Shown here: in pieces, positions 10,652 through 62,935 of the stretch
How positions within the stretch are numbered: position 1 is the first letter of the stretch
How the letters are laid out: each line of letters starts with the position of its first letter
IMG/VR virus record: IMGVR_UViG_3300028045_000008
Coordinates: 50,372 to 114,371 of that record
From: a virus
Direction: 5' to 3' (one strand)
Length of the DNA stretch: 64,000 bases
Notes under the pieces: generated by a model
What the model was told of the DNA's origin: nothing
The model's database searches: none
The model's input: only the letters and a program-made list of their open reading frames with translations
Program-made: the position numbers and the translations under genes

Positions 10652-11443
10652 ATGGGATTAGATTTAACAAAAATTCAAGCACGGCTTGATAACGTAAAGA
10701 GCAACGGCAAAGCCGGAGGTTCCTTCTGGCGCCCACAGGATGGTCAGCAGGTTATCCGTATCGTTCCGACTTCGGACGGTGACCCTTTCAAGGATTATTG
10801 GTTTCACTATAACCTCGGCCCAGAGCAACGCGGTGGATTGATATGTCCGAAGAAAAATCATGGAGATGATTGCCCTATCTGTGACTTCAAGGATCAGCTT
10901 TGGAAGGAATATAATAGCACGCAAGACACAGACACTCTTAAGTTGGCCAAGGATATGACACCTCGACAACGCTTCTTCTCTCCAGTAATGGTCCGAGGGG
11001 AAGAGTCTGGTGGAATTCGAATCTGGGGATATGGCAAAGAAGCTTACACCTCGTTGTTGAATCTGGTTCTAAATCCCGAATACGGAGATATCACTGACGT
11101 CGACGCAGGGACAGATCTGACTTTGACGTATGGCAAGCCTCCTGGCGCTAACTTCCCAAAGACAACTTTGACACCTCGGCGCCGCACTTCTCCGCTTTGT
11201 GATGAAGCTGTTGGCGGCGATGAAGAGTGCTCACGCCTGCTGGAGAATATTCCAAACTTCGACAATCTCTTTCCGACCAAGTCCTTAGAGGAGGTTCAAG
11301 AGGCCCTCGATTCCTTCATGGCTTCGCTTGGAGACTCCGCCGACCCTGTCGCCGGAATTGATCTAACAGACTCGGAAGCTTATAAACCAGCCTCTAGTTC
11401 AACTGAAGTTTTGTCAGCTTTCAACGAGCTAACAGGAAATTAA
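10652..11443 (+). CDS. Single-stranded DNA-binding protein, T4 gp32-like
   Basis: FWRP..G.QVIRIVP, H..CPK..CPIC zinc site, WGYGK, DITD...GTD, acidic tail. Confidence 0.8.
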   Translation: MGLDLTKIQARLDNVKSNGKAGGSFWRPQDGQQVIRIVPTSDGDPFKDYWFHYNLGPEQRGGLICPKKNHGDDCPICDFKDQLWKEYNSTQDTDTLKLAKDMTPRQRFFSPVMVRGEESGGIRIWGYGKEAYTSLLNLVLNPEYGDITDVDAGTDLTLTYGKPPGANFPKTTLTPRRRTSPLCDEAVGGDEECSRLLENIPNFDNLFPTKSLEEVQEALDSFMASLGDSADPVAGIDLTDSEAYKPASSSTEVLSAFNELTGN

Positions 11444-31362: not shown

Positions 31363-32399
31363 GAATCAAAGAGTGTCTATCATATGACGATGTGCTGCTC
31401 GTACCGAAGTATTCTGATATCGTATCTCGATCTGAAGTTGATACTTCTGCGTGTCTATCTCCTGACCTGATTTTTAAATTGCCGATCATCTCTTCTCCGA
31501 TGGACACTGTCACGGAGGAGGAGATGGCAACAGCTATGGGTTCTGTTGGCGGTCTGGGGATCATTCACAGATATAATTCCATCGATGATCAGTGTGGTAT
31601 GGTAATACGCGCCAAGTTCCACGACAACGCCGCTCCTGTGGCAGCAGCCATCGGCATCAGCGGTGACTACCAGGAGCGCGCCCACGAACTAGTACGCGCC
31701 GGCGCTTCGATTTTATGTCTGGATGTTGCCCATGGGCATCATATTCTCATGAAGGACGCTCTTACTAGTATTAAATCAATGTTCAATGACAGCGTCCATA
31801 TTATGGCTGGAAATGTCGCAACCAAATCCGGATTCGAAGATCTGGCTCATTGGGGCGCCGATTCTGTCAGGTGCAATATCGGAGGGGGTTCCATATGTTC
31901 CACTAGAATTCAAACAGGCCACGGAGTTCCCGGCTTACAAACACTGCTTGACTGCTTCGATTCTGCCACTGACCGCGATGTTAAGATTATTGCTGACGGA
32001 GGTATCAGAAACAGCGGAGATATAGTGAAGGCCCTAGCAGCAGGAGCAGATTTCGTCATGGTAGGCTCACTCTTATCTGGAACAGAAGAGACGCCAGGCC
32101 CGGTCATTCGAGGAAAAGACGGAAGAAACTTTAAGACATATCGGGGGATGGCCTCGCCAGAGGCACAGGTTAAGTGGCGAGGAAAGGCTAGTTCGCTTGA
32201 GGGAATCTCGACAATGGTTCCTCACCGCGGCTCAGTCATCCCAATCGTTGAGGAACTTGCTGTCGGTATTCGCAGCGGTCTATCCTACTCCGGATCTAGG
32301 AGTATTCTGGAATTGCAATCGAAAGCCGAGTTTATAAAGCAAACGTCATCTGGAATTGTCGAAAGCAATACCCATATTGATAGAAAGTTTAATGGCTGA
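31359..32399 (+). CDS. IMP dehydrogenase / GMP reductase family protein (no CBS domains)
   Basis: [49 protein letters not shown]. Confidence 0.9.
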
Positions 32400-49791: not shown

Positions 49792-49985
49792 GTTATGACA
49801 CACTCGGTGAAGGCAATATGATGTGGACAGTCATCTTTAGAACACTATGTGGAAAGCCGGATAGCTGTATCACATCGGGCCCACACTCAAAGGTGAAATG
49901 CTGGAACCTCGCAAATCAAAAATATAATCAATTGCTCGCTATCATACCGGGGAATCACCAAGTTTATACTAAAAAGGACTCTTGA
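49788..49985 (+). CDS. Small hypothetical protein
   Basis: 65 aa; stop TGA lies in the promoter repeat. Confidence 0.55.
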   Translation: MSYDTLGEGNMMWTVIFRTLCGKPDSCITSGPHSKVKCWNLANQKYNQLLAIIPGNHQVYTKKDS

Positions 49986-50036
49986 CATTCTCTTGACAAT
50001 TAAACACTAGACAAGACTAGAAATATCGTGTATAAT
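49981..50036 (+). promoter_or_regulatory. Composite promoter repeat 1 (drives tRNA)
   Basis: TTGACA 49982, TTGACA 49993, -35 TAGACA 50008, TATAAT 50031. Confidence 0.8.
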
Positions 50037-50049
50037 GTATATACATAAT

Positions 50050-50125
50050 ACGCTAGTAGCTCAGGGGTGAGAGCAGTCGTCTTATATGCGATTGGTCGGT
50101 GGTTCAAATCCACCCTAGCGTACCA
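50050..50125 (+). tRNA. tRNA-Ile (anticodon UAU) with encoded CCA
   Basis: ACGCTAG/CTAGCGT acceptor, GCTC/GAGC D-arm, GTCGT-CTTATAT-GCGAT anticodon arm, GGTGG-TTCAAAT-CCACC T-arm, ACCA. Confidence 0.93.
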
Positions 50126-50152
50126 TTTAACCCAGAACCATAAAGGTAAATC

Positions 50153-50407
50153 ATGATTAAAACTTGTAAACACTGTGAAATAGAATTCAATGTCAACTCG
50201 CGCCAGAAGCGCCTCGTCGGAGGATACATCAATGAGTGTCCAGATTGCGTCGAGGAGCGAGGTGGTGATAACTCGGAGCCCAAACACTTCGGAGTGACCG
50301 GCTCACTCGGTGACGATGTTTCGGTAGTTCGCTTTGATAGTCAAAAGAAGCGAGATCAATTCCAGAAAGAGTATGGAGAAATTAAAACCCTCAAAGACTT
50401 TTTCTAG
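50153..50407 (+). CDS. Zinc-ribbon small protein
   Basis: CKHC...CPDC. Confidence 0.7.
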   Translation: MIKTCKHCEIEFNVNSRQKRLVGGYINECPDCVEERGGDNSEPKHFGVTGSLGDDVSVVRFDSQKKRDQFQKEYGEIKTLKDFF

Positions 50408-50408
50408 T

Positions 50409-50464
50409 CTTGACATTCTCTTGACAATTTAACCATTGACTTTAACTTAAATAACGTGTATAAT
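50409..50464 (+). promoter_or_regulatory. Composite promoter repeat 2 (drives tRNA-like RNA)
   Basis: TTGACA 50410, TTGACA 50421, -35 TTGACT 50436, TATAAT 50459. Confidence 0.85.
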
Positions 50465-50468
50465 GTAT

Positions 50469-50563
50469 GTATAAATAGGGAGAGAGGCGCAGGTTCAAAT
50501 CCTGTCACGACCAAGGGACCAGTTGTGAAGTGTTGCTAGGTGGCACACTCGCCCTATTTATAT
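50469..50563 (+). ncRNA. Circularly permuted, anticodon-less tRNA-like RNA
   Basis: Terminal stem 50469-50484/50548-50563 encloses AGGC, T-arm GCAGG-TTCAAAT-CCTGT, acceptor-like hairpin CACGAC/GTTGTG, AA, D-arm GTGT-TGCTAGGTG-GCAC. Confidence 0.75.
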
Positions 50564-50587
50564 CACCAATCAATCCAGGAGCTTAAA

Positions 50588-50749
50588 ATGAACGACCCAA
50601 TACTAAATGACCTTATCCAAGTAGCTATTGAAGAATATTATAAGGAAGAACCTATTTATGGAGTAGATTATGATGAAATGCCAGAAGATTTAGAGGGCGA
50701 GTGCCCCGAGTGGATTAAGGAACAACTTGATGACGACATCCCATTTTAA
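50588..50749 (+). CDS. Acidic 53-aa peptide ending in SSB-type tail DDDIPF
   Basis: RBS AGGAG; MNDPILNDL...WIKEQLDDDIPF. Confidence 0.7.
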   Translation: MNDPILNDLIQVAIEEYYKEEPIYGVDYDEMPEDLEGECPEWIKEQLDDDIPF

Positions 50750-50975
50750 ACAAGGAACACAAACAATACTGAAGCCTAGCAAAAGGGCATCACAGCGGAC
50801 CCGAAATCGTATTCACGAAAAGGGTCCGTCTTTTATTGTCGAGCTTGAAGCGACAATGCTAACCAACACAGCCTCCTCAATTGATGGGAAAATTTGTATT
50901 TGCTTCCGAGGCGTTGACAACGACTGGTCTGGGTGGCTCCCTGTCGACGAGATCCACGTAATAACTTCACTATGA
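50730..50975 (+). CDS. Small hypothetical protein
   Basis: Ends WSGWLPVDEI, SH3-like tail. Confidence 0.55.
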   Translation: MTTSHFKQGTQTILKPSKRASQRTRNRIHEKGPSFIVELEATMLTNTASSIDGKICICFRGVDNDWSGWLPVDEIHVITSL

Positions 50976-50984
50976 GAAAGCAGC

Positions 50985-51206
50985 ATGAAAAGACAATACT
51001 TCCAGCCAGGGCAAATTGTTCAGCTAGACCGCCCAGAGTTGGGTGAGCGCGATACATGGAGATTTATTGTCCTATCTTCAACTCATCCACCTCGCCACCC
51101 TGGACGATATTCTCTTTATTGTATCCGAGCCCCATCTTATCGCAAAACAGACCTCAATACTGTCCAGTATATATCCGGTTGCAGCCTGCGAATAATGGAG
51201 GACTAA
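50985..51206 (+). CDS. Small SH3-like protein (array member)
   Basis: FQPGQIVQL...FIVL. Confidence 0.65.
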   Translation: MKRQYFQPGQIVQLDRPELGERDTWRFIVLSSTHPPRHPGRYSLYCIRAPSYRKTDLNTVQYISGCSLRIMED

Positions 51207-51209
51207 TAA

Positions 51210-51431
51210 ATGAAGTTTAAATCATCAGATTTCGATAGGGGCCAATTTTATAAGTTGAAAACTCAATCCTTTATTGTATTGGATAAGAAATCAATAAATG
51301 GGTGGTTCGACCGCATCTCTGTATATTTTGTCACTAACCGAAATAAACAGTTAAAAGGAAAGAAAAAAGATTTTACTACCGGCGGTTTTGAAATTTACTT
51401 AAACAAGCTCTCCCCCGGCGAACATAAATAA
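51210..51431 (+). CDS. Small SH3-like protein (array member)
   Basis: FDRGQFYKL..FIVL. Confidence 0.6.
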   Translation: MKFKSSDFDRGQFYKLKTQSFIVLDKKSINGWFDRISVYFVTNRNKQLKGKKKDFTTGGFEIYLNKLSPGEHK

Positions 51432-51436
51432 AACCT

Positions 51437-51492
51437 CTTGACATTCTCTTGACAATTTAGTTCTTTACTTTCTCTTGAAAAGCGTGTATAAT
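51437..51492 (+). promoter_or_regulatory. Composite promoter repeat 3
   Basis: TTGACA 51438, 51449; -35 TTTACT 51464; TATAAT 51487. Confidence 0.85.
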
Positions 51493-51518
51493 GTAGGTAT
51501 ACAAAAGAGAGTTGTGCC

Positions 51519-51791
51519 ATGCTAGATATCAATAGCTTAAAGTCAGGGCAAATGTTAAGATATTCCGTAAAATTGTATTCAACGCAGGAGCGCGTTGAAT
51601 CTTTGTGGATATTGTTGGAGGAAATGCCCGGCGCCGAATCGTGCTCGGCAAGATGGCAGGGCGCCCGAGCGTTTAAGATGTATCAAATATATGATAGCCA
51701 CAATGCACTGCGCCGCTTTCGGCAAAACCGACCGGTCGAATTCGTTTTTAATTTAAAGAGCATTCAGGATTTCGCATTGGAGGTGGTATGA
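51519..51791 (+). CDS. Small SH3-like protein (array member)
   Basis: LKSGQMLRY...WILL. Confidence 0.6.
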   Translation: MLDINSLKSGQMLRYSVKLYSTQERVESLWILLEEMPGAESCSARWQGARAFKMYQIYDSHNALRRFRQNRPVEFVFNLKSIQDFALEVV

Positions 51792-52000
51792 AAGACGAGC
51801 TTAAAGCAGGACAATTAAGAACAGTCGCTCGCGGCGGTCTTGAGGGCACAGTGGTTATTCTTTTGGATATACAGGACCACGCAAGGATGTTGACCCCTAA
51901 AAATCAGATTTGGGACTCGATTATCGTCTTTTCGCCCATCCCATACTGGGAGCCTGGCGAGAAAATTGGTCTGCGTGGCGTAGACTTAATGAATTGGTGA
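51788..52000 (+). CDS. Small SH3-like protein (array member)
   Basis: LKAGQLRTV...VILL. Confidence 0.6.
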   Translation: MKDELKAGQLRTVARGGLEGTVVILLDIQDHARMLTPKNQIWDSIIVFSPIPYWEPGEKIGLRGVDLMNW

Positions 52001-52024
52001 GCTAAGAATAGAAAGTTAATTCTT

Positions 52025-52080
52025 CTTGACATTCTCTTGACAATTTAGCCATTGACTTCAACTAAAAAAACGTGTATAAT
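52025..52080 (+). promoter_or_regulatory. Composite promoter repeat 4
   Basis: TTGACA 52026, 52037; -35 TTGACT 52052; TATAAT 52075. Confidence 0.85.
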
Positions 52081-52106
52081 ATAGATATAAAAACAGGAGC
52101 TATCAC

Positions 52107-52706
52107 ATGTCCGAACAAGCCAAAAGACTCGACGCCTTCTTGCTCGAAAACCAAATCTCTAAGAGTGAGCGCTCCTTTGGTGAATCTCTCAAACAGAGTA
52201 TTTCCAAGTGGGGAAAATTAACAGATAACCAGTGGAACGCCTTCCAGCGGATGGAAGCGCGCCACAGTCCGGAAGTAAAAGCAGCGCGGGAGGGGTGGCA
52301 TAAGAGTTGGGATGAAGAAAAAGCTAGAAAATTACGAATTGCTGTTGAATATTATTCCTATACTGAATATTATTCGAGAACGGTAAATGCTGTTCTTGCC
52401 GATTCCTCATTTGTACCTTCCGAAAAGGATTATCGAAAGATAGTCGAAAATAAATATGCCCAGAAAGTCATAGAAATTCTGGCAGAAGACCCACTTTATC
52501 CGGTTGGCAGTCTTGTTCAAGTCCGCAAAACTGCTCGCAAGCACGCCTATTCTTTGCGTGATAGGTGTGCCCTGGTTGTGGTGAATGATGGCCCAGTCAG
52601 ATCCGCCGCAAAAGGTTCTCGGACTTATACGATTCTGCCTTTCGGTGAATCTAACACCGTAACCGTCGAGGAGCGATGGCTCAAGAAGGCCAGGAAGGCG
52701 AAATGA
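52107..52706 (+). CDS. Hypothetical protein with C-terminal SH3-like domain
   Basis: F.ESL..Q..KWGKLT..Q; YPVGSLVQVR...VEERWLK. Confidence 0.75.
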   Translation: MSEQAKRLDAFLLENQISKSERSFGESLKQSISKWGKLTDNQWNAFQRMEARHSPEVKAAREGWHKSWDEEKARKLRIAVEYYSYTEYYSRTVNAVLADSSFVPSEKDYRKIVENKYAQKVIEILAEDPLYPVGSLVQVRKTARKHAYSLRDRCALVVVNDGPVRSAAKGSRTYTILPFGESNTVTVEERWLKKARKAK

Positions 52707-52957
52707 CCGCCGACATCACGCCAAAACTAGGCGATATACTCGAAGAGAACTGCTCAAGAACTGACTTCAAAGCAAGATATATTGTTTTATCTATCATATC
52801 AGGCGACAGTGAGTCAAGGCACGGAAATTCATATGAACTATACACCCTATATGTCGAATCTTCATCTGCAGCAGACCGGTCGTTACAAGGGACGATTGAC
52901 GTTGCATATAATCTGGAAATAAACAACCATCGCGACACATGGCGTATTATCTCTTGA
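52703..52957 (+). CDS. Small SH3-like protein (array member)
   Basis: PKLGDILEE...YIVL; stop lies in repeat. Confidence 0.65.
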   Translation: MTADITPKLGDILEENCSRTDFKARYIVLSIISGDSESRHGNSYELYTLYVESSSAADRSLQGTIDVAYNLEINNHRDTWRIIS

Positions 52958-53008
52958 CATTCTCTTGACAACTTTTCTCTTTACTTTCTTTTAAAAAGCG
53001 TGTATAAT
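52953..53008 (+). promoter_or_regulatory. Composite promoter repeat 5
   Basis: TTGACA 52954, 52965; -35 TTTACT 52980; TATAAT 53003. Confidence 0.85.
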
Positions 53009-53056
53009 GTATATGTAAGTTAGAGAAACAACCACAAACTTTTAGAGGCTATCACA

Positions 53057-53851
53057 ATGGCATACTCAAGAAATAAACACAAAAGAACCGTCCGCTGCTC
53101 ATACTGCCATAAATCGGGACACAATAAATCCTCTTGTTCTAGTAAGAGAGAAAGAATTGAGGAACTACGCGCCGTACATGGAGATGATTTTTACACTGTG
53201 CGCATGTACGACTTAAAAGAGGAGCGCCGAAAGGAAGGCGGGTCGTCAAGAACATGCTCCTATTGTTCCCAGGGTGGACACAACCGCGCGACCTGCACAG
53301 CCCTGAAGGGCCACATGGCTGAAACCAAAGTTAAAAACTCCGAATTCAGGAAGGCTGTTTATGAGCGTCTGTGCGCCAATGGCATTGGCATCGGAGCATT
53401 AGTTTCAAGTGACAATTTCCAGTGCAACGTCATCGCAGGCGATTATTCGTCAGGGGTCTATCGCGTTCCGCAAATCATAACAGATATAAACTGGCTCGGG
53501 ATAAATGTCTGGCATAAGGAACTATGGTATTTCGACTCGACTACCAATATCGATGGCGGTCAGCCTGCACCCATCTTTACGATTCCATTTGGGAAGATGG
53601 ACGATATTCGATGGAAGAACCCAATGGGATATCCATTTGACTCCAAACTTGTGCCGTTGTTCATAGGCGAGAAATATTTCAACGAATTGTGTGAGGGCAC
53701 TCACTGGCGCGCCGATAAAATTGGAGGTCATTTCATGACTGTTGAATCGCCAGTACCACCAACCGCCCCACCTGCTGGCTGGCTTGAGTCCGAGGACAAC
53801 AAAATTAAAGAGGTTTACAAGAACCGTAAGGACTGGCAAGGGGCTTTATAA
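53057..53851 (+). CDS. Protein with two CCHC zinc knuckles
   Basis: CSYCHKSGHNKSSC and CSYCSQGGHNRATC. Confidence 0.75.
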   Translation: MAYSRNKHKRTVRCSYCHKSGHNKSSCSSKRERIEELRAVHGDDFYTVRMYDLKEERRKEGGSSRTCSYCSQGGHNRATCTALKGHMAETKVKNSEFRKAVYERLCANGIGIGALVSSDNFQCNVIAGDYSSGVYRVPQIITDINWLGINVWHKELWYFDSTTNIDGGQPAPIFTIPFGKMDDIRWKNPMGYPFDSKLVPLFIGEKYFNELCEGTHWRADKIGGHFMTVESPVPPTAPPAGWLESEDNKIKEVYKNRKDWQGAL

Positions 53852-53864
53852 GCCCTTTATCGCC

Positions 53865-53920
53865 CTTGACATTCTCTTTACAATTAAAGTATTGATTTAT
53901 GTCTAAAAAACGTGTATAAT
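53865..53920 (+). promoter_or_regulatory. Composite promoter repeat 6
   Basis: TTGACA 53866, TTTACA 53877; -35 TTGATT 53892; TATAAT 53915. Confidence 0.85.
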
Positions 53921-53967
53921 GTATATGTAAGTTAGAGAAGCAACCAACACAACCCAGGAGACTTAAT

Positions 53968-55122
53968 ATGTCCATCGCTATCACATTCGCAAACCTCAAT
54001 TCAATGATTCCAACCCTTCTTTCAGGCGACGAAAACGACCTTTATTCGGTTCTTATTCGTGGTCGCCATGGCATCGGCAAATCTTGGATTGCCTATCAAA
54101 CCGCCCAGGGATTATCCTGGGACAAGGGCGCTAATAAGACGCGCCCAATTCAAGACGGTGAAGTTTCGCTTCCTGTAGTTGAGATTCGAGCCTCCCAGAT
54201 GACAGAGGGCGACCTTCTTGGATTACCATCTCCTCATGAAGTCAACATCAATGGCGAAAAGGCAGCTTCGCTGCGCCCTTTCACTTGGCTCGTAAAGGCT
54301 TGCACCGAGCCCGTCGTCCTCTTTCTCGATGAAGTTGACCGCGCGACAACCGAGGTTCGACAAGGCTTTTTCCAGCTTGGCGACAGTCGTCAAATCAACG
54401 GGTGGAAACTCCATCCAGGCACCGTCGTCTTCGGCGCTGTAAACGGCGGCGTTCATGCTGCACAATACCAAGTCGCCGACATGGACCCTGCAGAACTTGA
54501 CCGCTGGGTAACTTTCGACGTCGAACCATCGGTCGAAGATTGGCTTAACTGGGGCAAAACCGAGGTTCACTCCATCATCTGGGACTTCATTAATCAGAAC
54601 AAGGACCATCTGGAGCACAAGGGCGAATTTGAGCCAGGAACCGTTTATCCTTCTCGCCGCTCTTGGCACCGCTTGAGCAATACGCTTGCAAAGGTGAATA
54701 TGCTTGACAACGAAAAAGCAGATTTAGGGCTTCTCTTTAATCTATCCCACGGATTTGTAGGCTTCGAAGCAGCCGTGTCACTTCGCGACTTCGTGGAGAA
54801 TTACGAGCGTCAGGTTACTGTCGAGGATATCCTGGTCCATGGTAATGTGGATAAAACCTCTGGATTCGGTTTGGTCGACCACGTTGCCCTCATCGAAAAA
54901 ATGAATGCTGCTGAAGTATTCACTTCTTCGATTGAAGGCGATAAGATTGTGAATCTGGTAACCTATTTTGACGTGCTCCCATCCGAAGCACGCATGAAGT
55001 TGTTCACAACCCTGACCGCGGCCAACAGCCAGGTTTCCGCCGAGAATGGCGCTAATTTTCATCGCGAGCTAGCCAAGCAAGGCAAGGTCGAGGCGTTTAT
55101 TAAGCTTCTTGGTGGAAAATAA
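53968..55122 (+). CDS. MoxR-like AAA+ ATPase
   Basis: GRHGIGKS, GDLLGLP, LFLDEVDR, MDPAELDRW, PSRRSW. Confidence 0.85.
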   Translation: MSIAITFANLNSMIPTLLSGDENDLYSVLIRGRHGIGKSWIAYQTAQGLSWDKGANKTRPIQDGEVSLPVVEIRASQMTEGDLLGLPSPHEVNINGEKAASLRPFTWLVKACTEPVVLFLDEVDRATTEVRQGFFQLGDSRQINGWKLHPGTVVFGAVNGGVHAAQYQVADMDPAELDRWVTFDVEPSVEDWLNWGKTEVHSIIWDFINQNKDHLEHKGEFEPGTVYPSRRSWHRLSNTLAKVNMLDNEKADLGLLFNLSHGFVGFEAAVSLRDFVENYERQVTVEDILVHGNVDKTSGFGLVDHVALIEKMNAAEVFTSSIEGDKIVNLVTYFDVLPSEARMKLFTTLTAANSQVSAENGANFHRELAKQGKVEAFIKLLGGK

Positions 55123-55143
55123 GAGTGTGATAGCAAAGGTCGA

Positions 55144-55186
55144 AGCGCTAGCATCGGTTGGTTGTCCGATGCTAGCGCTCCCTTTC
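55144..55186 (+). terminator. Strong hairpin, probable terminator
   Basis: AGCGCTAGCATCGG/CCGATGCTAGCGCT 14-bp perfect stem, then pyrimidine run. Confidence 0.75.
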
Positions 55187-55187
55187 T

Positions 55188-55243
55188 CTTGACATTCTCT
55201 TGACATTTTAATCCTTTACTTATTCCCAAAAATCTGGTATAAT
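55188..55243 (+). promoter_or_regulatory. Composite promoter repeat 7
   Basis: TTGACA 55189, 55200; -35 TTTACT 55215; TATAAT 55238. Confidence 0.85.
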
Positions 55244-55268
55244 TCATATATAGAATGGAGTTTACCCT

Positions 55269-56633
55269 ATGACATCGACACCCTTTAATCTTGACGAACA
55301 TATTGTTGACCTGCTCCGAGATGAGCCTTTCTTCGCCGCTTTGTCGCGCCGTATGGAGAAAGTGGCCTCCAGGTCAGTTCCTACCGCTGGTGTAGCCTTC
55401 AACAAGGACCGATGCCGCTTTGAACTTTATTACAATCCCGAATTCATGGCAGATATGCTAGCCCAGGATAAGAAATATGTTAAAGGCATTCTGTTGCACG
55501 AATTTTATCACATCATGCTCCTGCACGTAACCTCGCGCATGCCAGACGGAGCCATGACTAAGAAATGGAATATCGCCACAGATTTAGCTATAAATTCCGA
55601 GCTAACCGTCTTTTCGCACGATTCTGACTCCCCCACTGGATACTCTGTGGAAAGCTCCATTCTGCCACTTGATAAGGCGTGTATCCCTACGGTCGGTCCC
55701 TTCGCAGAGTTCGCCCCGCATTTATCTGCCGAGCAATACCTATCCATCCTGCCGGATAGTCCAGAACCAGATGATAGTCAGTCTGGCCAAGGAGGCGGAC
55801 AGGAAGGCGGACAGGAAGACGGCCAAGGCGACGGACAGGAAGACGGCCAAGGCCAAGGCCAAGGCGACGGACAGGAAGACGGCCAAGGCCAAGGCCAAGG
55901 CGACGGACAGGAAGACGGCCAAGGCCAAGGCCAAGGCGACGGTAACGGCTTCGATGACCATACTGACTGGGGCTCATCGGATGGCGCAGACGAGGGAAGA
56001 AAAATTGCAGAAGAGCGCCTAAAGGAAGCAATCAAAGAGGCGTATGTCGAGGCCCAATCGCGGGGTTTTGGTTCCATCTCTTCTGGAATGAAGCGGACGA
56101 TTAAGGAGGTTATAACTCCTAAAGTCAACTGGCGTTCAATCCTACGCTCTTTCGTCAAGGCTTCGCAGAGAGCAGATAGAACCTCAACTATCAAACGCCT
56201 GAATCGCCGATACGCATACATCCACCCTGGTCGCAAGGCAAAGCGTCAAGCTAAAATCGCGGTTTCGATTGACCAATCGGGCAGTGTTTCCGATGGCATG
56301 CTCGTTGCATTTTACTCCGAACTTGAAAAGCTGGCAACCATCGCTGACTTCACGATTGTTCCCTTTGATACTGAGGTTGCAGAAGAACATATTCATGTTT
56401 GGAAGAAGGGTGAGCGACACGAGAAGACTCGATATAAGCATGGTGGAACCTGCTTTAACGCCCCAACCAAGTGGGTAAACGAGAACAAGTTTGATGGTCA
56501 CATTGTCCTGACTGATATGGAGGCTCCGAAGCCTATTCCCAGCAATTGCCAGCGTATGTGGATGACAACCAAGGCCCACGCAGAACGCCCTTACTTCCAG
56601 ACCAATGAACGAGTGATTGCAATCAATGACTAA
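55269..56633 (+). CDS. Metallopeptidase plus vWA-like protein (DUF2201-type MoxR partner)
   Basis: PTAGV, HEFYH, WNIATDLAIN, DDH..W, IDQSGSVS, GGTCF, LTD. Confidence 0.85.
   Translation: MTSTPFNLDEHIVDLLRDEPFFAALSRRMEKVASRSVPTAGVAFNKDRCRFELYYNPEFMADMLAQDKKYVKGILLHEFYHIMLLHVTSRMPDGAMTKKWNIATDLAINSELTVFSHDSDSPTGYSVESSILPLDKACIPTVGPFAEFAPHLSAEQYLSILPDSPEPDDSQSGQGGGQEGGQEDGQGDGQEDGQGQGQGDGQEDGQGQGQGDGQEDGQGQGQGDGNGFDDHTDWGSSDGADEGRKIAEERLKEAIKEAYVEAQSRGFGSISSGMKRTIKEVITPKVNWRSILRSFVKASQRADRTSTIKRLNRRYAYIHPGRKAKRQAKIAVSIDQSGSVSDGMLVAFYSELEKLATIADFTIVPFDTEVAEEHIHVWKKGERHEKTRYKHGGTCFNAPTKWVNENKFDGHIVLTDMEAPKPIPSNCQRMWMTTKAHAERPYFQTNERVIAIND
55785..55942 (+). repeat. In-frame G/Q/D tandem repeat (36-bp unit x3 plus partial copies)
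   Basis: GGACAGGAAGACGGCCAAGGCCAAGGCCAAGGCGAC. Confidence 0.9.
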
Positions 56634-56859
56634 CTCTCACCTCAAAATCGATGATGTCGAAGATTTAAAAGCTGGGGATATAATCTGTATCCCCAGCCTT
56701 CATCGTGGCGAGTGGTCGAGACTTGTTATATACGAGGTCACGAAAAGACTGTTTAAAACTTATGTATTACTTGATGAAACTCGTGCGTGGAAGCCAGGAG
56801 ATTTATATAGTTTTCAGATAATCGACCTGGACCCTACGAAATGGAGGTTGGTTGCTTGA
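56626..56859 (+). CDS. Small SH3-like protein (array member)
   Basis: LKAGDIICI; stop lies in repeat. Confidence 0.65.
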   Translation: MTNSHLKIDDVEDLKAGDIICIPSLHRGEWSRLVIYEVTKRLFKTYVLLDETRAWKPGDLYSFQIIDLDPTKWRLVA

Positions 56860-56910
56860 CATTCTCTTGACAAACTTTTCCTTTACTTTTCCTCCAAAAT
56901 TTGGTATAAT
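56855..56910 (+). promoter_or_regulatory. Composite promoter repeat 8
   Basis: TTGACA 56856, 56867; -35 TTTACT 56882; TATAAT 56905. Confidence 0.85.
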
Positions 56911-56933
56911 ATGTATATAGGATGGAGGTTAAC

Positions 56934-57185
56934 ATGAAGTTTAAGCCGGGAAATTTATTAAAGCATAAGAAAAACGGCGGGCTCTGGATTGTTATTGAAA
57001 CTCGCCAGATAAATAAAAAAGGTCCACGCAGGCGCCCGACTGTTTTCAGGATGCAATTGGATGCTGTTTGTATCCAGCCTGGACTAAGTAAGTGCAATCA
57101 TGCAGGGCTAGCCGATACCTGGTACTGTAAAGAAGAAGATGGAAGCGACCACGATGATAATTGGACGGTGATAAATGAAGTTTGA
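56934..57185 (+). CDS. Small SH3-like protein (array member)
   Basis: MKFKPGNLLKH...WIVI. Confidence 0.7.
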   Translation: MKFKPGNLLKHKKNGGLWIVIETRQINKKGPRRRPTVFRMQLDAVCIQPGLSKCNHAGLADTWYCKEEDGSDHDDNWTVINEV

Positions 57186-57408
57186 ACCAGGAGATTTAAT
57201 CGAAGAAGTCGTCGACGGTCAAGCCGATGCCCGATGCATTGTGGTAAAGCTTGAGAATCATCCGGTGGTTCCTGGGTTATCAGATTATACCCTTTATCTA
57301 GTGTGGGCGGCACCCCAGGCCTGGGGACATCCACCATGGAAAACCTTGATTTTAACGAATGCCGTGGTTGAGTCTTCTGATGACGATTATTACTGGAGGA
57401 AAGCATGA
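57175..57408 (+). CDS. Small SH3-like protein (array member)
   Basis: MKFEPGDLIEE. Confidence 0.7.
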   Translation: MKFEPGDLIEEVVDGQADARCIVVKLENHPVVPGLSDYTLYLVWAAPQAWGHPPWKTLILTNAVVESSDDDYYWRKA

Positions 57409-57638
57409 AATTTAAAGTCGGAGATTTAATAGCTCATAAGCCGATGCAGGGTTTAGGTTCGCTCGTTGAAGCGATTATCCTGGAGCACTGGCAAACTGAG
57501 AATTACTGGACAAAAGATGTCGTTGATAATGTACATTTATTCATAACTTTCGACGAGGATGACCCGACAGCAGTTAGCGATATTGACACAATGACCAGCT
57601 TCAAAGACCAGCATTGGAGCTTGAAAAGTGAGGTTTAA
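57405..57638 (+). CDS. Small SH3-like protein (array member)
   Basis: MKFKVGDLIAH; NVHLFITFD. Confidence 0.7.
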   Translation: MKFKVGDLIAHKPMQGLGSLVEAIILEHWQTENYWTKDVVDNVHLFITFDEDDPTAVSDIDTMTSFKDQHWSLKSEV

Positions 57639-57858
57639 ATCCGGAGATATTGTCGCTTACGGCATGAATAATAAGCCAGAGATACAGGGCGTTATCGTCA
57701 ATCTCAGTAAAGAGCCAAACCCGTGGAAAGCGGGAACCATTGCTAATGTGGATCTATTCATCACTTTCGACGCCTCGTGGCCTTCTAAACTACACAAAAT
57801 TGAGACGTTTTGCAACTTTAACCCCGATGTCTGGGAGTTGAAAAATGAAAAAGGGTGA
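57628..57858 (+). CDS. Small SH3-like protein (array member)
   Basis: MRFKSGDIVAY; NVDLFITFD. Confidence 0.7.
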   Translation: MRFKSGDIVAYGMNNKPEIQGVIVNLSKEPNPWKAGTIANVDLFITFDASWPSKLHKIETFCNFNPDVWELKNEKG

Positions 57859-58078
57859 TTTGATTCAGTTTGTATCTGCACATGAAAAACATCGATGCAG
57901 GGGGATTATTTTGGAGAACGTTCCAGAAGATGATAATCAATTACCTCGAATCCGCATCGCTGTATATATGTATTATGTCCCAGCATGGAATAATCTTAAA
58001 TCAGGGGAAATCTGGGATATCAAGTTGAGCAAATTGAATAAGCTTTACCGGGTTTTAAATAAAGCTAAGACTAACTAA
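57845..58078 (+). CDS. Small SH3-like protein (array member)
   Basis: MKKGDLIQF...GIIL. Confidence 0.7.
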   Translation: MKKGDLIQFVSAHEKHRCRGIILENVPEDDNQLPRIRIAVYMYYVPAWNNLKSGEIWDIKLSKLNKLYRVLNKAKTN

Positions 58079-58081
58079 GGT

Positions 58082-58339
58082 GTGAAGAAATACCACCCAG
58101 GCCAAATTGTACGATATGAAAGAACGGGAGCTATATATTTGCTAATGGAGGAGATAGAAATATCAATGCTTTCGCCTCATTTTTTCAAAGGGACAGGCCA
58201 GGGATTTAGGGCCCTCATCCTTTATGCTGGTCGCAGTTGGTCAAAGGGTGGCACCGAGATAGAGATTTTTATATTGCGAAAGTCGGCATATTACGAGGTT
58301 TTATCGGACGTCCCCAGCGCCGCCGCCGACCCCAGATAG
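58082..58339 (+). CDS. Small SH3-like protein (array member)
   Basis: YHPGQIVRY..IYLL. Confidence 0.7.
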   Translation: MKKYHPGQIVRYERTGAIYLLMEEIEISMLSPHFFKGTGQGFRALILYAGRSWSKGGTEIEIFILRKSAYYEVLSDVPSAAADPR

Positions 58340-58402
58340 TTGGTGATTAGCGCGCCTAGCGCGATTTTTTTTCGCTAAATTTTTTTTCAATAGGATTACA
58401 TT

Positions 58403-58660
58403 ATGAAGTTTAAACCAGGCAATATCTTGGAACACTGCCCCACTAAGACAAGATGGATTGTATTATCCGCAGAGAATATCGAGAAAAGAACAGGAATAAA
58501 CAGCGCTTACAAGCTAGAGGTAGAAGCATTTTGTGTTTATGTAGGGGAGCATGATAGGGCAAACAGATATTGGGATGTTAATCAGCGTGACATCTTTGTT
58601 TTGACGCAGCAAGATTTAAACCCGAGTGATATAGTGTGGGAGGTCAAGAATGAAATTTAA
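58403..58660 (+). CDS. Small SH3-like protein (array member)
   Basis: MKFKPGNILEH...WIVL. Confidence 0.7.
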   Translation: MKFKPGNILEHCPTKTRWIVLSAENIEKRTGINSAYKLEVEAFCVYVGEHDRANRYWDVNQRDIFVLTQQDLNPSDIVWEVKNEI

Positions 58661-58841
58661 ACCAGGACAATTAGTTAGGAAGAAGGCCAGAAAAGGAGAT
58701 CCCGACGCAATTTATTATGTGCTTGATGCGAGTTATCCCAAAATGCTGATTCATTGTGTGGAATCACTCTTCGATTTTATGCAGGGGAAAAGCTATGAAG
58801 TCGGGGTAGGTGAATGTGAGTTAATAACGGATTACCGATGA
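58650..58841 (+). CDS. Small SH3-like protein (array member)
   Basis: MKFKPGQLVRK. Confidence 0.7.
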   Translation: MKFKPGQLVRKKARKGDPDAIYYVLDASYPKMLIHCVESLFDFMQGKSYEVGVGECELITDYR

Positions 58842-59074
58842 GGTTGAAGTCAGTCAGAATTAAAGCAGGCGATATCGTAACGCTAGATTATGCGCGTGAA
58901 AGTCCGAAAGGAGAGGCACCACTATTCATAGCGCTAGAAAATCCGACGTCGATACATTATTCAATGAATGTCTATTGCTTCTATAGCCCAGGGGGTATAC
59001 AGCATACCGCTTGGCTTCATGCAACTTTCGACATATCCCAAAGCAGGTTAATAAAGTTCAATTATACAGGATGA
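58838..59074 (+). CDS. Small SH3-like protein (array member)
   Basis: IKAGDIVTL. Confidence 0.65.
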   Translation: MRLKSVRIKAGDIVTLDYARESPKGEAPLFIALENPTSIHYSMNVYCFYSPGGIQHTAWLHATFDISQSRLIKFNYTG

Positions 59075-59089
59075 ACCCCTACTTAGGAT

Positions 59090-59359
59090 GTGAGAGAATT
59101 CTTACCAGGTGATTTAGTAGTAGAAACCATGGATAACCGAGTGTTGGCCTATTACATAATATTAACCAGGCATTATTTAGATGGAAACAGGGACAGCTTA
59201 ATCTTGGGATATTATTCACTAATCGTTTATAGTACGGGTCACGCGTTGCCAACTCACTCGCCAGGTTCGAATTGGTTCATCAAGCATTCTGATTTACAAA
59301 AGTCAAATTTTCGCTTGTTAGTTGGCGCCAGGATAGAAGACCTAGAAACCATGGAATAA
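59090..59359 (+). CDS. Small SH3-like protein (array member)
   Basis: FLPGDLVVE..YIIL. Confidence 0.7.
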   Translation: MREFLPGDLVVETMDNRVLAYYIILTRHYLDGNRDSLILGYYSLIVYSTGHALPTHSPGSNWFIKHSDLQKSNFRLLVGARIEDLETME

Positions 59360-59361
59360 GC

Positions 59362-59715
59362 ATGAAAACTAAGAAAGAGTGTTCAAACGTGAGAGCTTTG
59401 AGAGAATCCATCTGCCCAGGTGATATCCTAGTTGAAAAGTCATTTGTCAAAGAATCCGGTGATAGAGATGTAGTAAGCATATTCCTAGTATTAAACAGGC
59501 ATATGGAGAGGGATGGCTTGGGCCTTGATAGTTTCACGAGGACAATTTATTATAAAACATTCCTATTATACGTTGAACCTAATGATTGGGCAGATGTCGA
59601 CTTTAGAGTTAACTCCACATATTATCTATCAGAGCATGAAATCACAGATCACCACATGTGGGAAAAACTGTTTGAATCTGACTTGTCATGGAAAGATAGT
59701 TATCCGAGGACATAA
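59362..59715 (+). CDS. Small SH3-like protein (array member)
   Basis: CPGDILVE; WEKLFESDLSW. Confidence 0.7.
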   Translation: MKTKKECSNVRALRESICPGDILVEKSFVKESGDRDVVSIFLVLNRHMERDGLGLDSFTRTIYYKTFLLYVEPNDWADVDFRVNSTYYLSEHEITDHHMWEKLFESDLSWKDSYPRT

Positions 59716-59723
59716 AAGATAAT

Positions 59724-60026
59724 ATGTTAGAGTTATTTCCAGGTGATTTAATAAGTGAGAAAGAGAACAATCAAGAGATCGCTCGCTATCTAGTAATAAG
59801 CAGAGTTATCCAGAATCAAAATGCACAGTATTGTACCTTCGATTATGTAGAGTATAACTGCATTATCACGTACTTCAATGGAAAGGTATATCATCGCCCC
59901 GAAAAGGTAGGAACATGGTGGATAATCGACACAATCAATTTGAACAGCAACAGGGAGGATTGGGAAGTGGTGGTAAGAAGCGGACTATCATGGAGTGACG
60001 AGTATGAAAAAGAAAATAGAGCTTAA
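59724..60026 (+). CDS. Small SH3-like protein (array member)
   Basis: FPGDLISE; WEVVVRSGLSW. Confidence 0.7.
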   Translation: MLELFPGDLISEKENNQEIARYLVISRVIQNQNAQYCTFDYVEYNCIITYFNGKVYHRPEKVGTWWIIDTINLNSNREDWEVVVRSGLSWSDEYEKENRA

Positions 60027-60360
60027 ACCTGACAAATCAGACCGCTTCTTGGAGCCAGCCCCTGGAGATATCATAAGGGAATACTACTATACCGAGACAT
60101 GGCCTAAAAAAGAGATTGAAATAGGACAATGGTTAGTATTAGGAAGAAGACATGTAATAAATGAAGAATTATTTCAATCAATAGGAAGAGCGAGATTATA
60201 CTACTGCCTCGTTATAAAGGTTAATACTGACATATCGTGGGTTAACTCAAGAGTAGGACAAACCAGAGGAATCATCTCTCAAAAGTTTAATTCTAATAAA
60301 TGGGAAGTAGTGGTAGAAAGTGGGTTATCGTGGGAAGAAGATAAGTATGACATTGAGTAG
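60004..60360 (+). CDS. Small SH3-like protein (array member)
   Basis: APGDIIRE; WEVVVESGLSW. Confidence 0.7.
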   Translation: MKKKIELKPDKSDRFLEPAPGDIIREYYYTETWPKKEIEIGQWLVLGRRHVINEELFQSIGRARLYYCLVIKVNTDISWVNSRVGQTRGIISQKFNSNKWEVVVESGLSWEEDKYDIE

Positions 60361-60605
60361 ATCTAAACACGGGAATTAAAGAATCACAATAGGTATGGAG
60401 GAAATAGGGGAATCACGGTGTCGATATAGTACGTTGTAACTAGAATGTCAAGCGCCATTGTTGTAAAGATTCTGTCAATTCTTCATATATTTACTTGACA
60501 AACATAAACACGCTTATATACCCCTTTATCGCAATCACACTGCCAATATCACGTGATTAATCATATGTCACTATCAAACACACTAATCGCGTGTCAAGTA
60601 TTTAA

Positions 60606-60673
60606 TTGTCAAAAGAATGTCAAGCAAGATATACTAGATTCCCCTTGACTTATCCCCTGCTTTATGATATATT
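60606..60673 (+). promoter_or_regulatory. Inverted tandem box plus sigma70-type promoter
   Basis: TTGTCAAAAGAATGTCAAG (reverse complement of the repeat), then TTGACT 60645-17-TATATT 60668. Confidence 0.7.
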
Positions 60674-60689
60674 AGTATTATAGGAGAGA

Positions 60690-60830
60690 ATGATGGAAGC
60701 ACTATTACGCAATATACTCCTGCTCTTTGGAGTATTGTTCATAATCGACTTTGTAACTGAGTATCCTCAGACCTTTGATAATGTCGGTGAAACCGTTGAT
60801 AACATTAAAGCCAAATTAGGCACTAAGTAA
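60690..60830 (+). CDS. 46-aa single-TM peptide (not in ORF track)
   Basis: RBS AGGAG; MMEALLRNILLLFGVLFIIDFV... Confidence 0.6.
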   Translation: MMEALLRNILLLFGVLFIIDFVTEYPQTFDNVGETVDNIKAKLGTK

Positions 60831-60840
60831 GGAGAGAATC

Positions 60841-60927
60841 ATGACAGCACGATTACCAGAGATTATTATTACGATATCGTTCGCTTATCTGACAGCATTC
60901 GCATTGTATGCTTTCATACTAGCTTAA
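60841..60927 (+). CDS. 28-aa hydrophobic peptide (not in ORF track)
   Basis: RBS AAGGAG; MTARLPEIIITISFAYLTAFALYAFILA. Confidence 0.55.
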   Translation: MTARLPEIIITISFAYLTAFALYAFILA

Positions 60928-61034
60928 TCTAAAAACACGTCATTCGCACCGATTTGACAGAAAAGTGATGGAGAGCCTATAAATAAATTATAATTATCCT
61001 CAGCCATATAGGGGGTTGCAAGTAGTATGTCGTC

Positions 61035-61090
61035 CTTGACATTTCTTTGACATTCATTATGTGTACTTCGGGCCCAATTCGCGGTATAAT
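61035..61090 (+). promoter_or_regulatory. Composite promoter repeat 9
   Basis: TTGACA 61036, 61047; -35 TGTACT 61062; TATAAT 61085. Confidence 0.75.
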
Positions 61091-61114
61091 ATGATTACAA
61101 AGAGGGGAGAACAC

Positions 61115-61306
61115 ATGAATAAAAAACGCCGTTCATATCGACCACGCAAGCCAGCGCGCCCGCCTTGGATTGTCTGTTGGATTCATAACACAACAGGATT
61201 CGCAGATGCATCAACTGTATATGCGAAAGACGAGGAACAAGCTAAGTTATTGGCGTCTAACGGTTACACTTCAAACATCACAATTACCGGCGTTTATCGC
61301 GCTTAA
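61115..61306 (+). CDS. Small basic protein
   Basis: RBS GAGGGGAG; MNKKRRSYRPRKPARP. Confidence 0.65.
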   Translation: MNKKRRSYRPRKPARPPWIVCWIHNTTGFADASTVYAKDEEQAKLLASNGYTSNITITGVYRA

Positions 61307-61328
61307 TCACCCAGCAGAGGATAATAAT

Positions 61329-61736
61329 ATGAAAGATATCAGATTAATGATTGCAGAAAAAATGGAAGACATGCTTGACGAGCTTTTGGTCGATGTCGCC
61401 GATGAGCTTGGTTTGGATGACGTCGATTTAGATTGGGACGTTCGGCAAGCTTTGGACGCCAATTGTCAAGATAAATGGGGTACTATGGCCGACAATATTG
61501 CAGAAGCAACCGAGAATCACGTCCAGGAGTGTGCTGCAGCAGAATCGAATCGCATGCTTGAAGAGTGGAAAACTTGGTGCTTGCCCATTATCAAGGAAGA
61601 ATGCGAACAAGATGGCCATATCGATGGTCCCGCTCGCCGTGAGGATTGGTGCAATTTTCTTGATGCCAAGTCGAAGAACGGCGAACTATCTCAGTTTCTC
61701 GTTGATATCATTGATGCTGACGTTGAGGCTGTATAA
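61329..61736 (+). CDS. Acidic hypothetical protein
   Basis: RBS GAGGA; D/E-rich; REDWCNFLD...GELS. Confidence 0.7.
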   Translation: MKDIRLMIAEKMEDMLDELLVDVADELGLDDVDLDWDVRQALDANCQDKWGTMADNIAEATENHVQECAAAESNRMLEEWKTWCLPIIKEECEQDGHIDGPARREDWCNFLDAKSKNGELSQFLVDIIDADVEAV

Positions 61737-61828
61737 TGAACGACTCAATATTGGACTTCCTTGGCCTATTATCAATCTTCGCAACTTGCTATTTCCTGTT
61801 AATCGCTTCACAACTCATCGGAGCTTAA
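61736..61828 (+). CDS. 30-aa hydrophobic peptide (not in ORF track)
   Basis: TAATG coupling; MNDSILDFLGLLSIFATCYFLLIASQLIGA. Confidence 0.5.
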   Translation: MNDSILDFLGLLSIFATCYFLLIASQLIGA

Positions 61829-61831
61829 AAA

Positions 61832-62101
61832 ATGTTTGACCCACACGCTATCGGACCTTTCGCCGAGTCCCAAACCAAGGCTTTGAACTTCATTACGAGC
61901 CTTATCGTTAATACTGCAGTCACTGAAACTCTCAAAGTTATGGATGATATGCAGTTGGAAGGTAAACAATTGCTTAAAGAACTCCGAAGTTCCGAGGGCA
62001 ATAAAAAAGAAGAAGTAAAAGCAGCTTTGAAACTGCATATTAAAGACTCTAAACTCTTGCTTGAAACCATTATGATGAACCCAATCGAAAAGGATGCTTA
62101 A
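61832..62101 (+). CDS. Hypothetical protein
   Basis: RBS GGAG, 89 aa. Confidence 0.65.
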   Translation: MFDPHAIGPFAESQTKALNFITSLIVNTAVTETLKVMDDMQLEGKQLLKELRSSEGNKKEEVKAALKLHIKDSKLLLETIMMNPIEKDA

Positions 62102-62104
62102 ACC

Positions 62105-62374
62105 ATGCGTATTGTAAACTATAAATCAAATCAAACTATCGTTCACACTGACACCTACACCGCTCTTTTGAGCTATGGAGTCCCTCAAGTTGTTGTTTGC
62201 AACCCAGATATGCCCACCCTTGGGAATACCGTGCTTGTGAATAGTAAGAAATACTCAAATACTACTTCAAAGCACCGCAATGCTTATGTGCGTCAGTTGT
62301 GTGATCGCTCATATACTATCATCGAAGCAACCCCTGCAGAGATTCAAGAAGTAACCGGCCTAGAAACCCGATAA
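62105..62374 (+). CDS. Hypothetical phage protein
   Basis: LLSYG..., YSNTTSKHRN motif. Confidence 0.7.
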   Translation: MRIVNYKSNQTIVHTDTYTALLSYGVPQVVVCNPDMPTLGNTVLVNSKKYSNTTSKHRNAYVRQLCDRSYTIIEATPAEIQEVTGLETR

Positions 62375-62385
62375 TGGAGAACACT

Positions 62386-62535
62386 ATGAATATTGAGTTA
62401 ACACCTGAAGAATTGGACGTTCTGCGTCACGCACTCAAAGTCGAGATATCATCCTTTAAAGCTGAACAATTGGATGATCCCGATCTAAAAGCTTTATGCT
62501 CACTCGTACGCAAACTGGAGGCAAATAATGACTAG
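62386..62535 (+). CDS. 49-aa hypothetical protein (not in ORF track)
   Basis: RBS GGAG; MNIELTPEELDVLRHAL. Confidence 0.6.
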   Translation: MNIELTPEELDVLRHALKVEISSFKAEQLDDPDLKALCSLVRKLEANND

Positions 62536-62623
62536 CACCTTTAACACTCTATTGGGCGCGGCAATCGTCGACGCTCTATGTTGGATCAGTGTATTCTATA
62601 TTGGGTGGAGGTTATTAAGCTGA
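62528..62623 (+). CDS. 31-aa hydrophobic peptide (not in ORF track)
   Basis: RBS GGAGG; MTSTFNTLLGAAIVDALCWISVFYIGWRLLS. Confidence 0.55.
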   Translation: MTSTFNTLLGAAIVDALCWISVFYIGWRLLS

Positions 62624-62656
62624 GGCCCTAACAAATAAATAAACATATATCAGATT

Positions 62657-62684
62657 AAGCCAGGTAACCCCTGGCTTTTCTTTT
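62657..62684 (+). terminator. Intrinsic terminator ending the small-gene region
   Basis: AAGCCAGG/CCTGGCTT stem, then TTCTTTT. Confidence 0.8.
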
Positions 62685-62935
62685 GTCAAGGATTATTATC
62701 AGGCTTTACATTCTCTTGACAACTAAATGCTTGACACCCTATAGAGCAGTAACAAACTTATATAATACGAATTGACACAAAGTTTACATATGTCATAGTA
62801 ATAAAAGAGTTTACAAGTATTTGACATATCACAATAACAAAGGAACAAACTGATTTGTCACAGCAAGCAAACGATTTGTCAGGATAAAGCACGCTAATGA
62901 GGGGTACCCCCCCTCCCCCCTCACTCCCCGGAAAG
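62684..62935. repeat. Cluster of TT(G/T)ACA tandem boxes followed by a C-rich tract
   Basis: 11-bp-spaced pairs at 62705/62716, 62772/62783, 62810/62821; GATTTGTCA x2; GGGGTACCCCCCCTCCCCCCTCACTCCCC. Confidence 0.75.

Follow-up and report, generated by a model that had tools for sequence, protein, structure and literature searches.

The C-terminal tip of SSB, the bacterial protein that binds single-stranded DNA, is one of the best-connected docking peptides in the maintenance of bacterial genomes and has been proposed as an antibiotic target. In E. coli, where the tip reads MDFDDDIPF (F at position −7 from the C-terminus), its partners include exonuclease I, RecQ, PriA, RecO, the chi subunit, primase and others. 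Tips ending in IPF and in LPF both occur in bacterial SSBs. The hexapeptide DDDIPF has been named SSB-Ct (PMC5872125), and the nine-residue tip is reported to recruit at least 17 partner proteins in E. coli (PMC10018359).

Phage T7 gp2.5 and gp4 have acidic, Phe-ended C-terminal tails and T4 gp32 has an acidic C-domain, all of them replisome docking elements; these tails belong to proteins that bind DNA or to helicases and contact phage partners, whereas the protein described here copies the bacterial tip. T7 Gp5.9, Ocr, phi29 p56 and T7 Gp2 are small acidic early phage inhibitors that fold as DNA mimics, and to our knowledge none of them ends in an SSB tip. They are like our protein in size, charge, early expression and presumed host target; searches of cultured phages, PHROGs and Pfam detected no homology between them. 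Host-type tips on phage proteins have also been described, in Bas52_0087, a phage OB-fold SSB-like trigger of DRT10 carrying FDDDIPF (bioRxiv 10.64898/2026.04.29.721553), and in prophage DUF669 proteins carrying DDDIPF (PMC13687109). Together with the mini-SSBs of phrog_18154, these are likewise phage-encoded proteins with a host tip, believed to connect with factors of the host that process ssDNA, but they possess an OB or DUF669 DNA-binding body, which our protein lacks. In the literature searched on SSB-Ct and bacteriophages, as far as the available parts of those sources go, host-type tips are found only on DNA-binding bodies and no OB-less tip carrier or decoy is described.

The protein is encoded in the window, the whole 64-kb stretch of viral DNA analysed here, which is the 3′ part of a 114-kb IMG/VR virus record (63% complete). 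Its gene and tip are as follows.

50588..50749, + strand: ORF of the acidic protein, with ATG start, 53 aa, stop included (from sequence and translation)
50577..50581, + strand: Shine-Dalgarno sequence AGGAG, 6 nt before the ATG, with GGAG at the same place in the related L004-L008
50726..50746, + strand: tip L-D-D-D-I-P-F, whose last six residues are the E. coli SSB-Ct hexapeptide

The preliminary description of this DNA, made from the sequence alone, had reported here a very acidic 53-residue peptide ending in LDDDIPF, and this is what the ORF encodes: 18 D/E against 2 K/R, a net charge of about −16 per 53 residues (the family median is also −16), and a stop codon directly after F53 that places the tip at the extreme C-terminus. 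An SSB-like tip ends only one stop-to-stop frame of at least 20 codons in the 114-kb record, namely this ORF, and the sole [DE][DE]xPF-stop of a complete 193-kb relative (G001) belongs to its homologue. Compared with the closest relative, the ORF has a dN/dS of 0.18; between more distant pairs synonymous sites are saturated and the motifs persist. Such purifying selection indicates that the ORF is translated, contradicting the possibility, allowed for at the outset, that it is not. The small size of the ORF and its want of annotation are all that speaks for a chance ORF or a functionless tail. Chance is excluded by the family-wide conservation of the tip together with purifying selection; with 61 homologous clusters and a ribosome-binding site, promoter and terminator conserved along with the tip, we consider the probability of this explanation negligible.

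An exhaustive phmmer search over 1.8 billion representatives returned seven relatives of the acidic protein, and a profile search yielded 61 clusters of 50-91 aa, either marine-metagenomic or viral (phages of ∼190 kb with DnaE and a gp32-like SSB). The gene stretch itself occurs in seawater or marine metagenomes of more than 12 studies. PHROGs gave no family at E up to 0.1, and Pfam, run on all 52 aligned members, nothing consistent (best E 0.025, in one member only). No usable match was present in the protein atlas, no relative was detected by megablast and tblastn against 50,697 cultured phage records, and a peptide-pattern scan of genomes from 185,579 prokaryote species found no family member. 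Longer, fused homologues were sought and none was found, which is weak evidence. The acidic protein thus founds a new, previously unannotated family. Mimicry of a ribonucleotide reductase (RNR) tail was considered and rejected: the matches to acidic C-termini of Staphylococcus phage RNR beta are at chance level (E 5-10) and exclude the PF tip.

The preliminary description had proposed checking whether homologues keep the tail, and they do so down to about 35-45% identity. A tip of the form [DE][DEA][DE]xPF ends 57 of 62 distinct family members, most commonly as DEELPF, DEEIPF or DEDIPF. Position by position, F occupies −1 in 59/62, P −2 in 58/62 and I or L −3 in 50/62; positions −4 to −6 are D or E, with D at −6 in 58/62, and L, I or M stands at −7 in 56/62. 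For comparison, IMG/VR was scanned for DDDIPF followed by a stop: of the 83 distinct phage ORFs of SSB size collected in this way, 45 have a hydrophobic −7, versus a background of 17.5%. The acidic protein therefore has in common with the bacterial SSB-Ct the last six residues, a hydrophobic −7, a free carboxylate and a preceding acidic flexible segment. Unlike in bacterial SSB, the tip does not sit on an OB-fold, tetrameric ssDNA-binding core; its carrier is a 47-residue acidic segment with motifs of its own. Lacking the OB core, the acidic protein cannot by itself place partners on ssDNA. Judged from these sequences, it is likely that the acidic protein engages SSB-Ct pockets in some role through mimicry of the tip.

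Members with unusual C-termini are informative in two ways. Three of them (P0052, P0053 and P0062) carry a 5-residue insertion after EQIDE and nonetheless have DDEIPF at the very end; this terminal restoration indicates that selection acts on the terminal position and not on a mere helix stretch. Exceptional tips also exist and are real, having been seen on several contigs. The tip-less variant L005 (gene 10001-10177) ends in DEDILNHEV and reads like a small deletion before the stop, and an F-to-L variant, in the complete 190-kb phage G004 (L006/7), ends in DEDIPL. No other ORF with an SSB tip is present in the L005 and G004 (L006/7) genomes.

The same residues could be read as a copy of another docking peptide, either a beta-clamp-binding motif (QL[SD]LF or QLxLxL) or the FtsZ C-terminal peptide (D-I-P-x-F-L-[RK]). 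The almost invariant Q46 is followed by L or I, as in a clamp motif, yet the spacing Q-L-D-x-x-[IL]-P-F does not fit and the insertion variants shift the Q by five residues and still retain the tip. Known division blockers exist among small early phage proteins (T7 Gp0.4, lambda Kil), and D-I-P-F superficially recalls the DIPAF of FtsZ; in the FtsZ peptide, by contrast, one residue separates P from F and the chain runs on into L-R-K, where the acidic protein stops at F. Both readings were ruled out on spacing and are highly improbable.

Upstream of the tip, the protein has two further conserved segments.

50597..50641, + strand: N-terminal helix with motifs DPxLxDL...(S)EEYY, residues 4-18 (AF2 helix 4-17, pLDDT ∼81)
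50699..50728, + strand: motif ECPxW[IV]xEQ[LI], residues 38-47, with short helix 41-47 (alignment and AF2)

In the first, P4 and Y18 are each conserved in 51/52 aligned members and E15 and E16 in 49/52; in the second, P40 and W42 are invariant, C39 is found in 51/52, Q46 in 49/52, and D48 is nearly invariant. The DPxLxDL, EEYY and ECPxW motifs are thus conserved as strongly as the tip, and the middle (residues 19-37) is variable in length and sequence while remaining acidic and aromatic-rich throughout. An AF2 model built with the 52-sequence alignment has helices at 4-17 and 41-47, coil elsewhere and no strands (pLDDT 73.6, pTM 0.28), which suggests that the protein is probably mostly disordered and folds on a partner. 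This two-helix model bears out the earlier remark that the peptide has no OB fold, as does the bacterial SSB OB-fold domain PF00436, for which neither the genome nor five related phage records gave a match. Conservation outside the tip indicates that the acidic protein is more than a bare tail and has at least one further predicted interaction surface. Of the proposed stand-alone mimic of the SSB tail, the SSB-like tip therefore stands, and the bare tail is too simple given N-terminal motifs that are equally conserved.

A strongly acidic protein of this kind might instead be a host-takeover or anti-defence inhibitor of the DNA-mimic type, with a target outside the SSB interactome and the tail as a local anchor, or its tail might dock, in the manner of the T7 gp2.5 and gp4 tails, on a basic patch of a phage polymerase or helicase. 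The net charge, the small size with a helical N-terminus, the many aromatics among the acidic residues and the early promoter described below all fit such a protein. It would leave unexplained the exact copy of the SSB tip over seven positions and its restoration after insertions, and the monomer model (with the low pTM given above) does not display the compact charged scaffold of a DNA mimic; we regard it as unlikely.

The gene has its own signals for transcription.

50410..50464, + strand: composite promoter, with the box TTGACATTCTCTTGACA at 50410-50426, −35 TTGACT at 50436-50441, a 17-nt spacer and −10 TATAAT at 50459-50464
50469..50563, + strand: structured 5′ leader of ∼95 nt, with a long basal stem and three hairpins, one of them T-arm-like (GCAGG-TTCAAAT-CCTGT)
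50794..50836, + strand: intrinsic-terminator-like hairpin (CGGACCC...GGGTCCG) followed by UCUUUUAUU, from folding

The promoter matches 11 of 12 positions in a promoter scan. The pattern of its TTGACATTCTCTTGACA box occurs 14 times in the window, versus 0.56 expected by chance, and all copies fall within 49982-62826, a block of small ORFs (∼49.9-62.8 kb); none precedes the replication genes at 7-27 kb. The suggestion that the gene is early is consistent with this, as it has its own copy of the promoter of the small-gene block, which the replication module is missing. The composite promoter is kept in L004, L005 and L006/7, and L008 has a simpler TTGACA/TATAAT. The terminator hairpin (dG −21.8 kcal/mol, z −3.6; 0 of 200 shuffles fold equally well) is kept in L004, and L008 has an analogous hairpin with a T-run. 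With its own promoter and its own terminator, the acidic gene forms a monocistronic unit for a sigma-70-type polymerase. In a seawater metatranscriptome run, a 208-nt contig is identical to 50525-50731; it alone covers the 1.4-kb stretch in that run and is a weak hint of transcription of the acidic gene.

The preliminary description had placed the ORF directly behind a tRNA-like RNA, and the cloverleaf-like leader (∼50469-50563) does lie immediately upstream. Its minimum free energy is −34.5 kcal/mol, with a z of only −1.3; a consensus fold with the diverged L007 includes four pairs with compensatory changes, and when the window is compared with L004/L005, the leader has diverged less than the ORF itself. 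Since L008 encodes the same protein without a leader, the leader is not obligatory for it. Rfam has no family for this RNA, and ARAGORN and Rfam together report near the gene a tRNA-Ile(UAU) at 50050-50125 and nothing else. A two-piece tmRNA composed of leader and ORF was rejected, given that ARAGORN calls tRNA-Ile only and that the ORF has its own ribosome-binding site and ATG. Two small ORFs flank the unit. Between tRNA-Ile and the promoter, an 84-aa ORF (50153-50407) contains a zinc-ribbon-like CxxC...CxxC arrangement, has a weak PHROG match to HNH (E 0.023) and is missing at that position in L004. Just past the terminator, a 39-aa ORF (50856-50975) shows 11 of its 19 differences from L004 at third codon positions and by this pattern is probably coding.

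The phage has an SSB of its own, and also a replicative polymerase.

10652..11443, + strand: gp32-like SSB (PF08804, E 5.7e-15), the only PF08804 match in the genome
22809-26246: DnaE

As had been noted, the gp32-like SSB ends differently, in AFNELTGN. In an alignment from five phages (A5) it comprises a conserved core, a variable linker (∼227-250) and a conserved tip, V-[LV]-[AS]-AFNEL-[TS]-GN, encoded at ∼11408-11440. The layout of core, disordered linker and docking tip is the same as in bacterial SSB, in another code, and the phage replisome probably docks on the AFNELTGN-type peptide. That this tip is distinct and conserved supports the view that a separately expressed host-type tip is aimed elsewhere. 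A complex prediction for the gp32-like SSB (A5) with the acidic peptide (A3) scored 0.01, a value that bears neither way on whether the two act together as considered below. The window also encodes a DnaB-like helicase, a class II RNR-like protein, GroEL, a short family-A polymerase, a RecA-like protein, a 5′-3′ exonuclease, FKBP, a PurA-like protein, Dam methylase, dUTPase and a GMP-reductase/IMPDH-like protein (31359-32399). Five related virus records carrying the peptide encode, where enough DNA is available, a gp32-like SSB and DnaE and no bacterial-type SSB, and complete related phages measure 190-193 kb. No close cultured relative was found for the phage or its DnaE. Neither a DnaN-type clamp (PF02768) nor a clamp-loader domain (PF13177) was detected in G000, G001 and G004, two complete relatives included, and the phage polymerase presumably uses the host clamp and loader or an unrecognised substitute. 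The statement that the phage uses its own SSB and DnaE accordingly holds in part: both are present, but self-sufficiency is partial. The PurA-like gene (26503-27504) is short, 333 aa; a PurZ (Z-genome) reading was rejected on a PurA match at E 6e-57 versus E 1e-13 to 1e-19 for phage PurZ structures, and the comparison suggests that it is probably an auxiliary gene of purine salvage and not a Z-genome marker.

Other phage proteins bearing the host tip were encountered as well. The all-helical phrog_1811 (73 aa, unknown function) ends in (N)DDDIPF or EDDIPF in 29 of 59 distinct sampled members, the rest ending in LQAFKL, and lies in a module after DNA polymerase, a Cas4-like exonuclease, a phosphoesterase and a kinase. 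Examples are:

L021, 2622-2846, − strand: phrog_1811
L041, 1279-1497, − strand: phrog_1811
L049, 2983-3201, − strand: phrog_1811
L095, 1958-2176, + strand: phrog_1811
L217-L296: further phrog_1811 examples

Like the acidic protein, phrog_1811 is a small non-OB phage protein with a host SSB tip; it differs in having an unrelated sequence and no overall acidity, in lying within a DNA-metabolism module and in being tipped optionally (29/59 versus 57/62). The acidic family is set apart by being acidic, disordered, early and nearly always tipped. Many beta-rich phage proteins of 75-107 aa annotated as single strand DNA binding protein (phrog_18154/7364) also end in DDDIPF and are unusually small for SSB-like proteins, for example:

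L046, 1028-1279, + strand: small SSB-like protein ending in DDDIPF
L026, 5859-6149, + strand: small SSB-like protein ending in DDDIPF
L120, 3489-3809, − strand: small SSB-like protein ending in DDDIPF

Three singletons, L085 (63 aa), L094 (80 aa) and L123 (92 aa), end in DDDIPF and match no family.

If the tip does engage SSB-Ct pockets, the protein could serve the phage as an adaptor. Its N-terminal helices would hold a phage protein or DNA-protein complex (gp32-like SSB, DnaE, helicase) and the tip would recruit a tail-binding partner, such as the host chi/clamp loader, primase or RNase HI, or a phage enzyme with an SSB-Ct pocket, so that a host-type tag is provided in trans. The conserved motifs outside the tip would then be accounted for. 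A DnaE that comes without clamp or loader means that the phage must engage host parts, the gp32-like SSB has no host-type tip, and the unrelated helical phrog_1811 has the tip as an optional add-on within a DNA-metabolism module; phage Red-beta, moreover, is reported to bind the host SSB-Ct (PMC6393309). Were this correct, SSB tips would be portable modules moved by phages between carriers. The position of the gene is at odds with such a role, however, lying outside the replication module as a monocistronic member of the early small-gene regulon. For recruitment it would be enough to have the host-type tip on gp32, yet that protein retains a conserved tip of its own, and the tip-less or F-to-L variants are uncompensated elsewhere, a complete genome included. 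For these reasons we find the adaptor doubtful.

We prefer to view the acidic protein as an early decoy or inhibitor of the SSB recruitment hub of the host, a reading in which host-partner binding and inhibition are inferred and to which we give a little less than even confidence. It is favoured over the adaptor by the separate early promoter regulon and monocistronic unit, by a phage SSB tip that is orthogonal to the host one and by the lack of a DNA-binding body, and the uncompensated tip-less variants fit an accessory host-directed factor better than an essential part of the replisome. Soon after infection, host RNA polymerase would transcribe the monocistronic unit from its consensus promoter, and the acidic mini-protein would be made early and abundantly. 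The free tip, hydrophobic-D-[DE]-[DE]-[IL]-P-F-COOH, would occupy the SSB-Ct pockets of host SSB-interacting proteins and so uncouple these enzymes from SSB-coated DNA. The helical motifs and the acidic aromatic middle would probably make a second contact, which may be ssDNA-like and could raise affinity or pick targets, and might so give a bivalent inhibitor of enzymes that bind ssDNA as well as the SSB tip. A different conserved tip on its gp32-like SSB would protect the phage from its own decoy.

Several observations bear on how far the decoy reading can be taken. Because cells contain micromolar concentrations of SSB tails, a decoy would have to be strongly expressed or bind with additional affinity. 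The conserved motifs outside the tip count against a pure decoy, since a decoy needs none, and could be an adaptor handle. Having no clamp or loader, the phage probably borrows host replisome parts, which a pan-inhibitor of the SSB hub might disturb. On the other side, when the SSB hub of B. subtilis is blocked chemically, replication and recombination come to a rapid halt (PMC3594151), from which it follows that a decoy would usefully serve the phage.

In its most specific form, which we put forward tentatively, the decoy would be a bivalent mimic of ssDNA plus SSB tip that, in the first minutes of infection, switches off replication restart, recombination and ssDNA nucleases in the host while the phage replisome runs on the orthogonal AFNELTGN code. 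If true, it would be the first natural equivalent of the synthetic inhibitors of SSB protein-protein interactions and a ready-made, genetically encoded probe or inhibitor of the SSB interactome, usable in E. coli because the hexapeptide is identical. A free-standing tip would represent a host-takeover strategy not found in the literature searched and, taken with the tip of the phage SSB, a natural case of two orthogonal SSB-tip codes in one infected cell.

As to the host, the phage promoters follow the sigma-70 consensus. For the GMP-reductase-like protein, the best match among genomes, at 57% identity, comes from a metagenome-assembled genome (MAG) of Halobacteriovorax, a marine predatory member of the Bdellovibrionota. 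This MAG (loci L132 and L216) has no homologue of the acidic peptide, and one of its contigs carries distant gp32-like and UvsX-like genes; the match is for these reasons either a weak hint at Halobacteriovorax as the host or a case of phage contigs binned into the MAG. The distant gp32-like protein ends in ...AFADLEDL, and the SSBs of the MAG end in ADDIPF.
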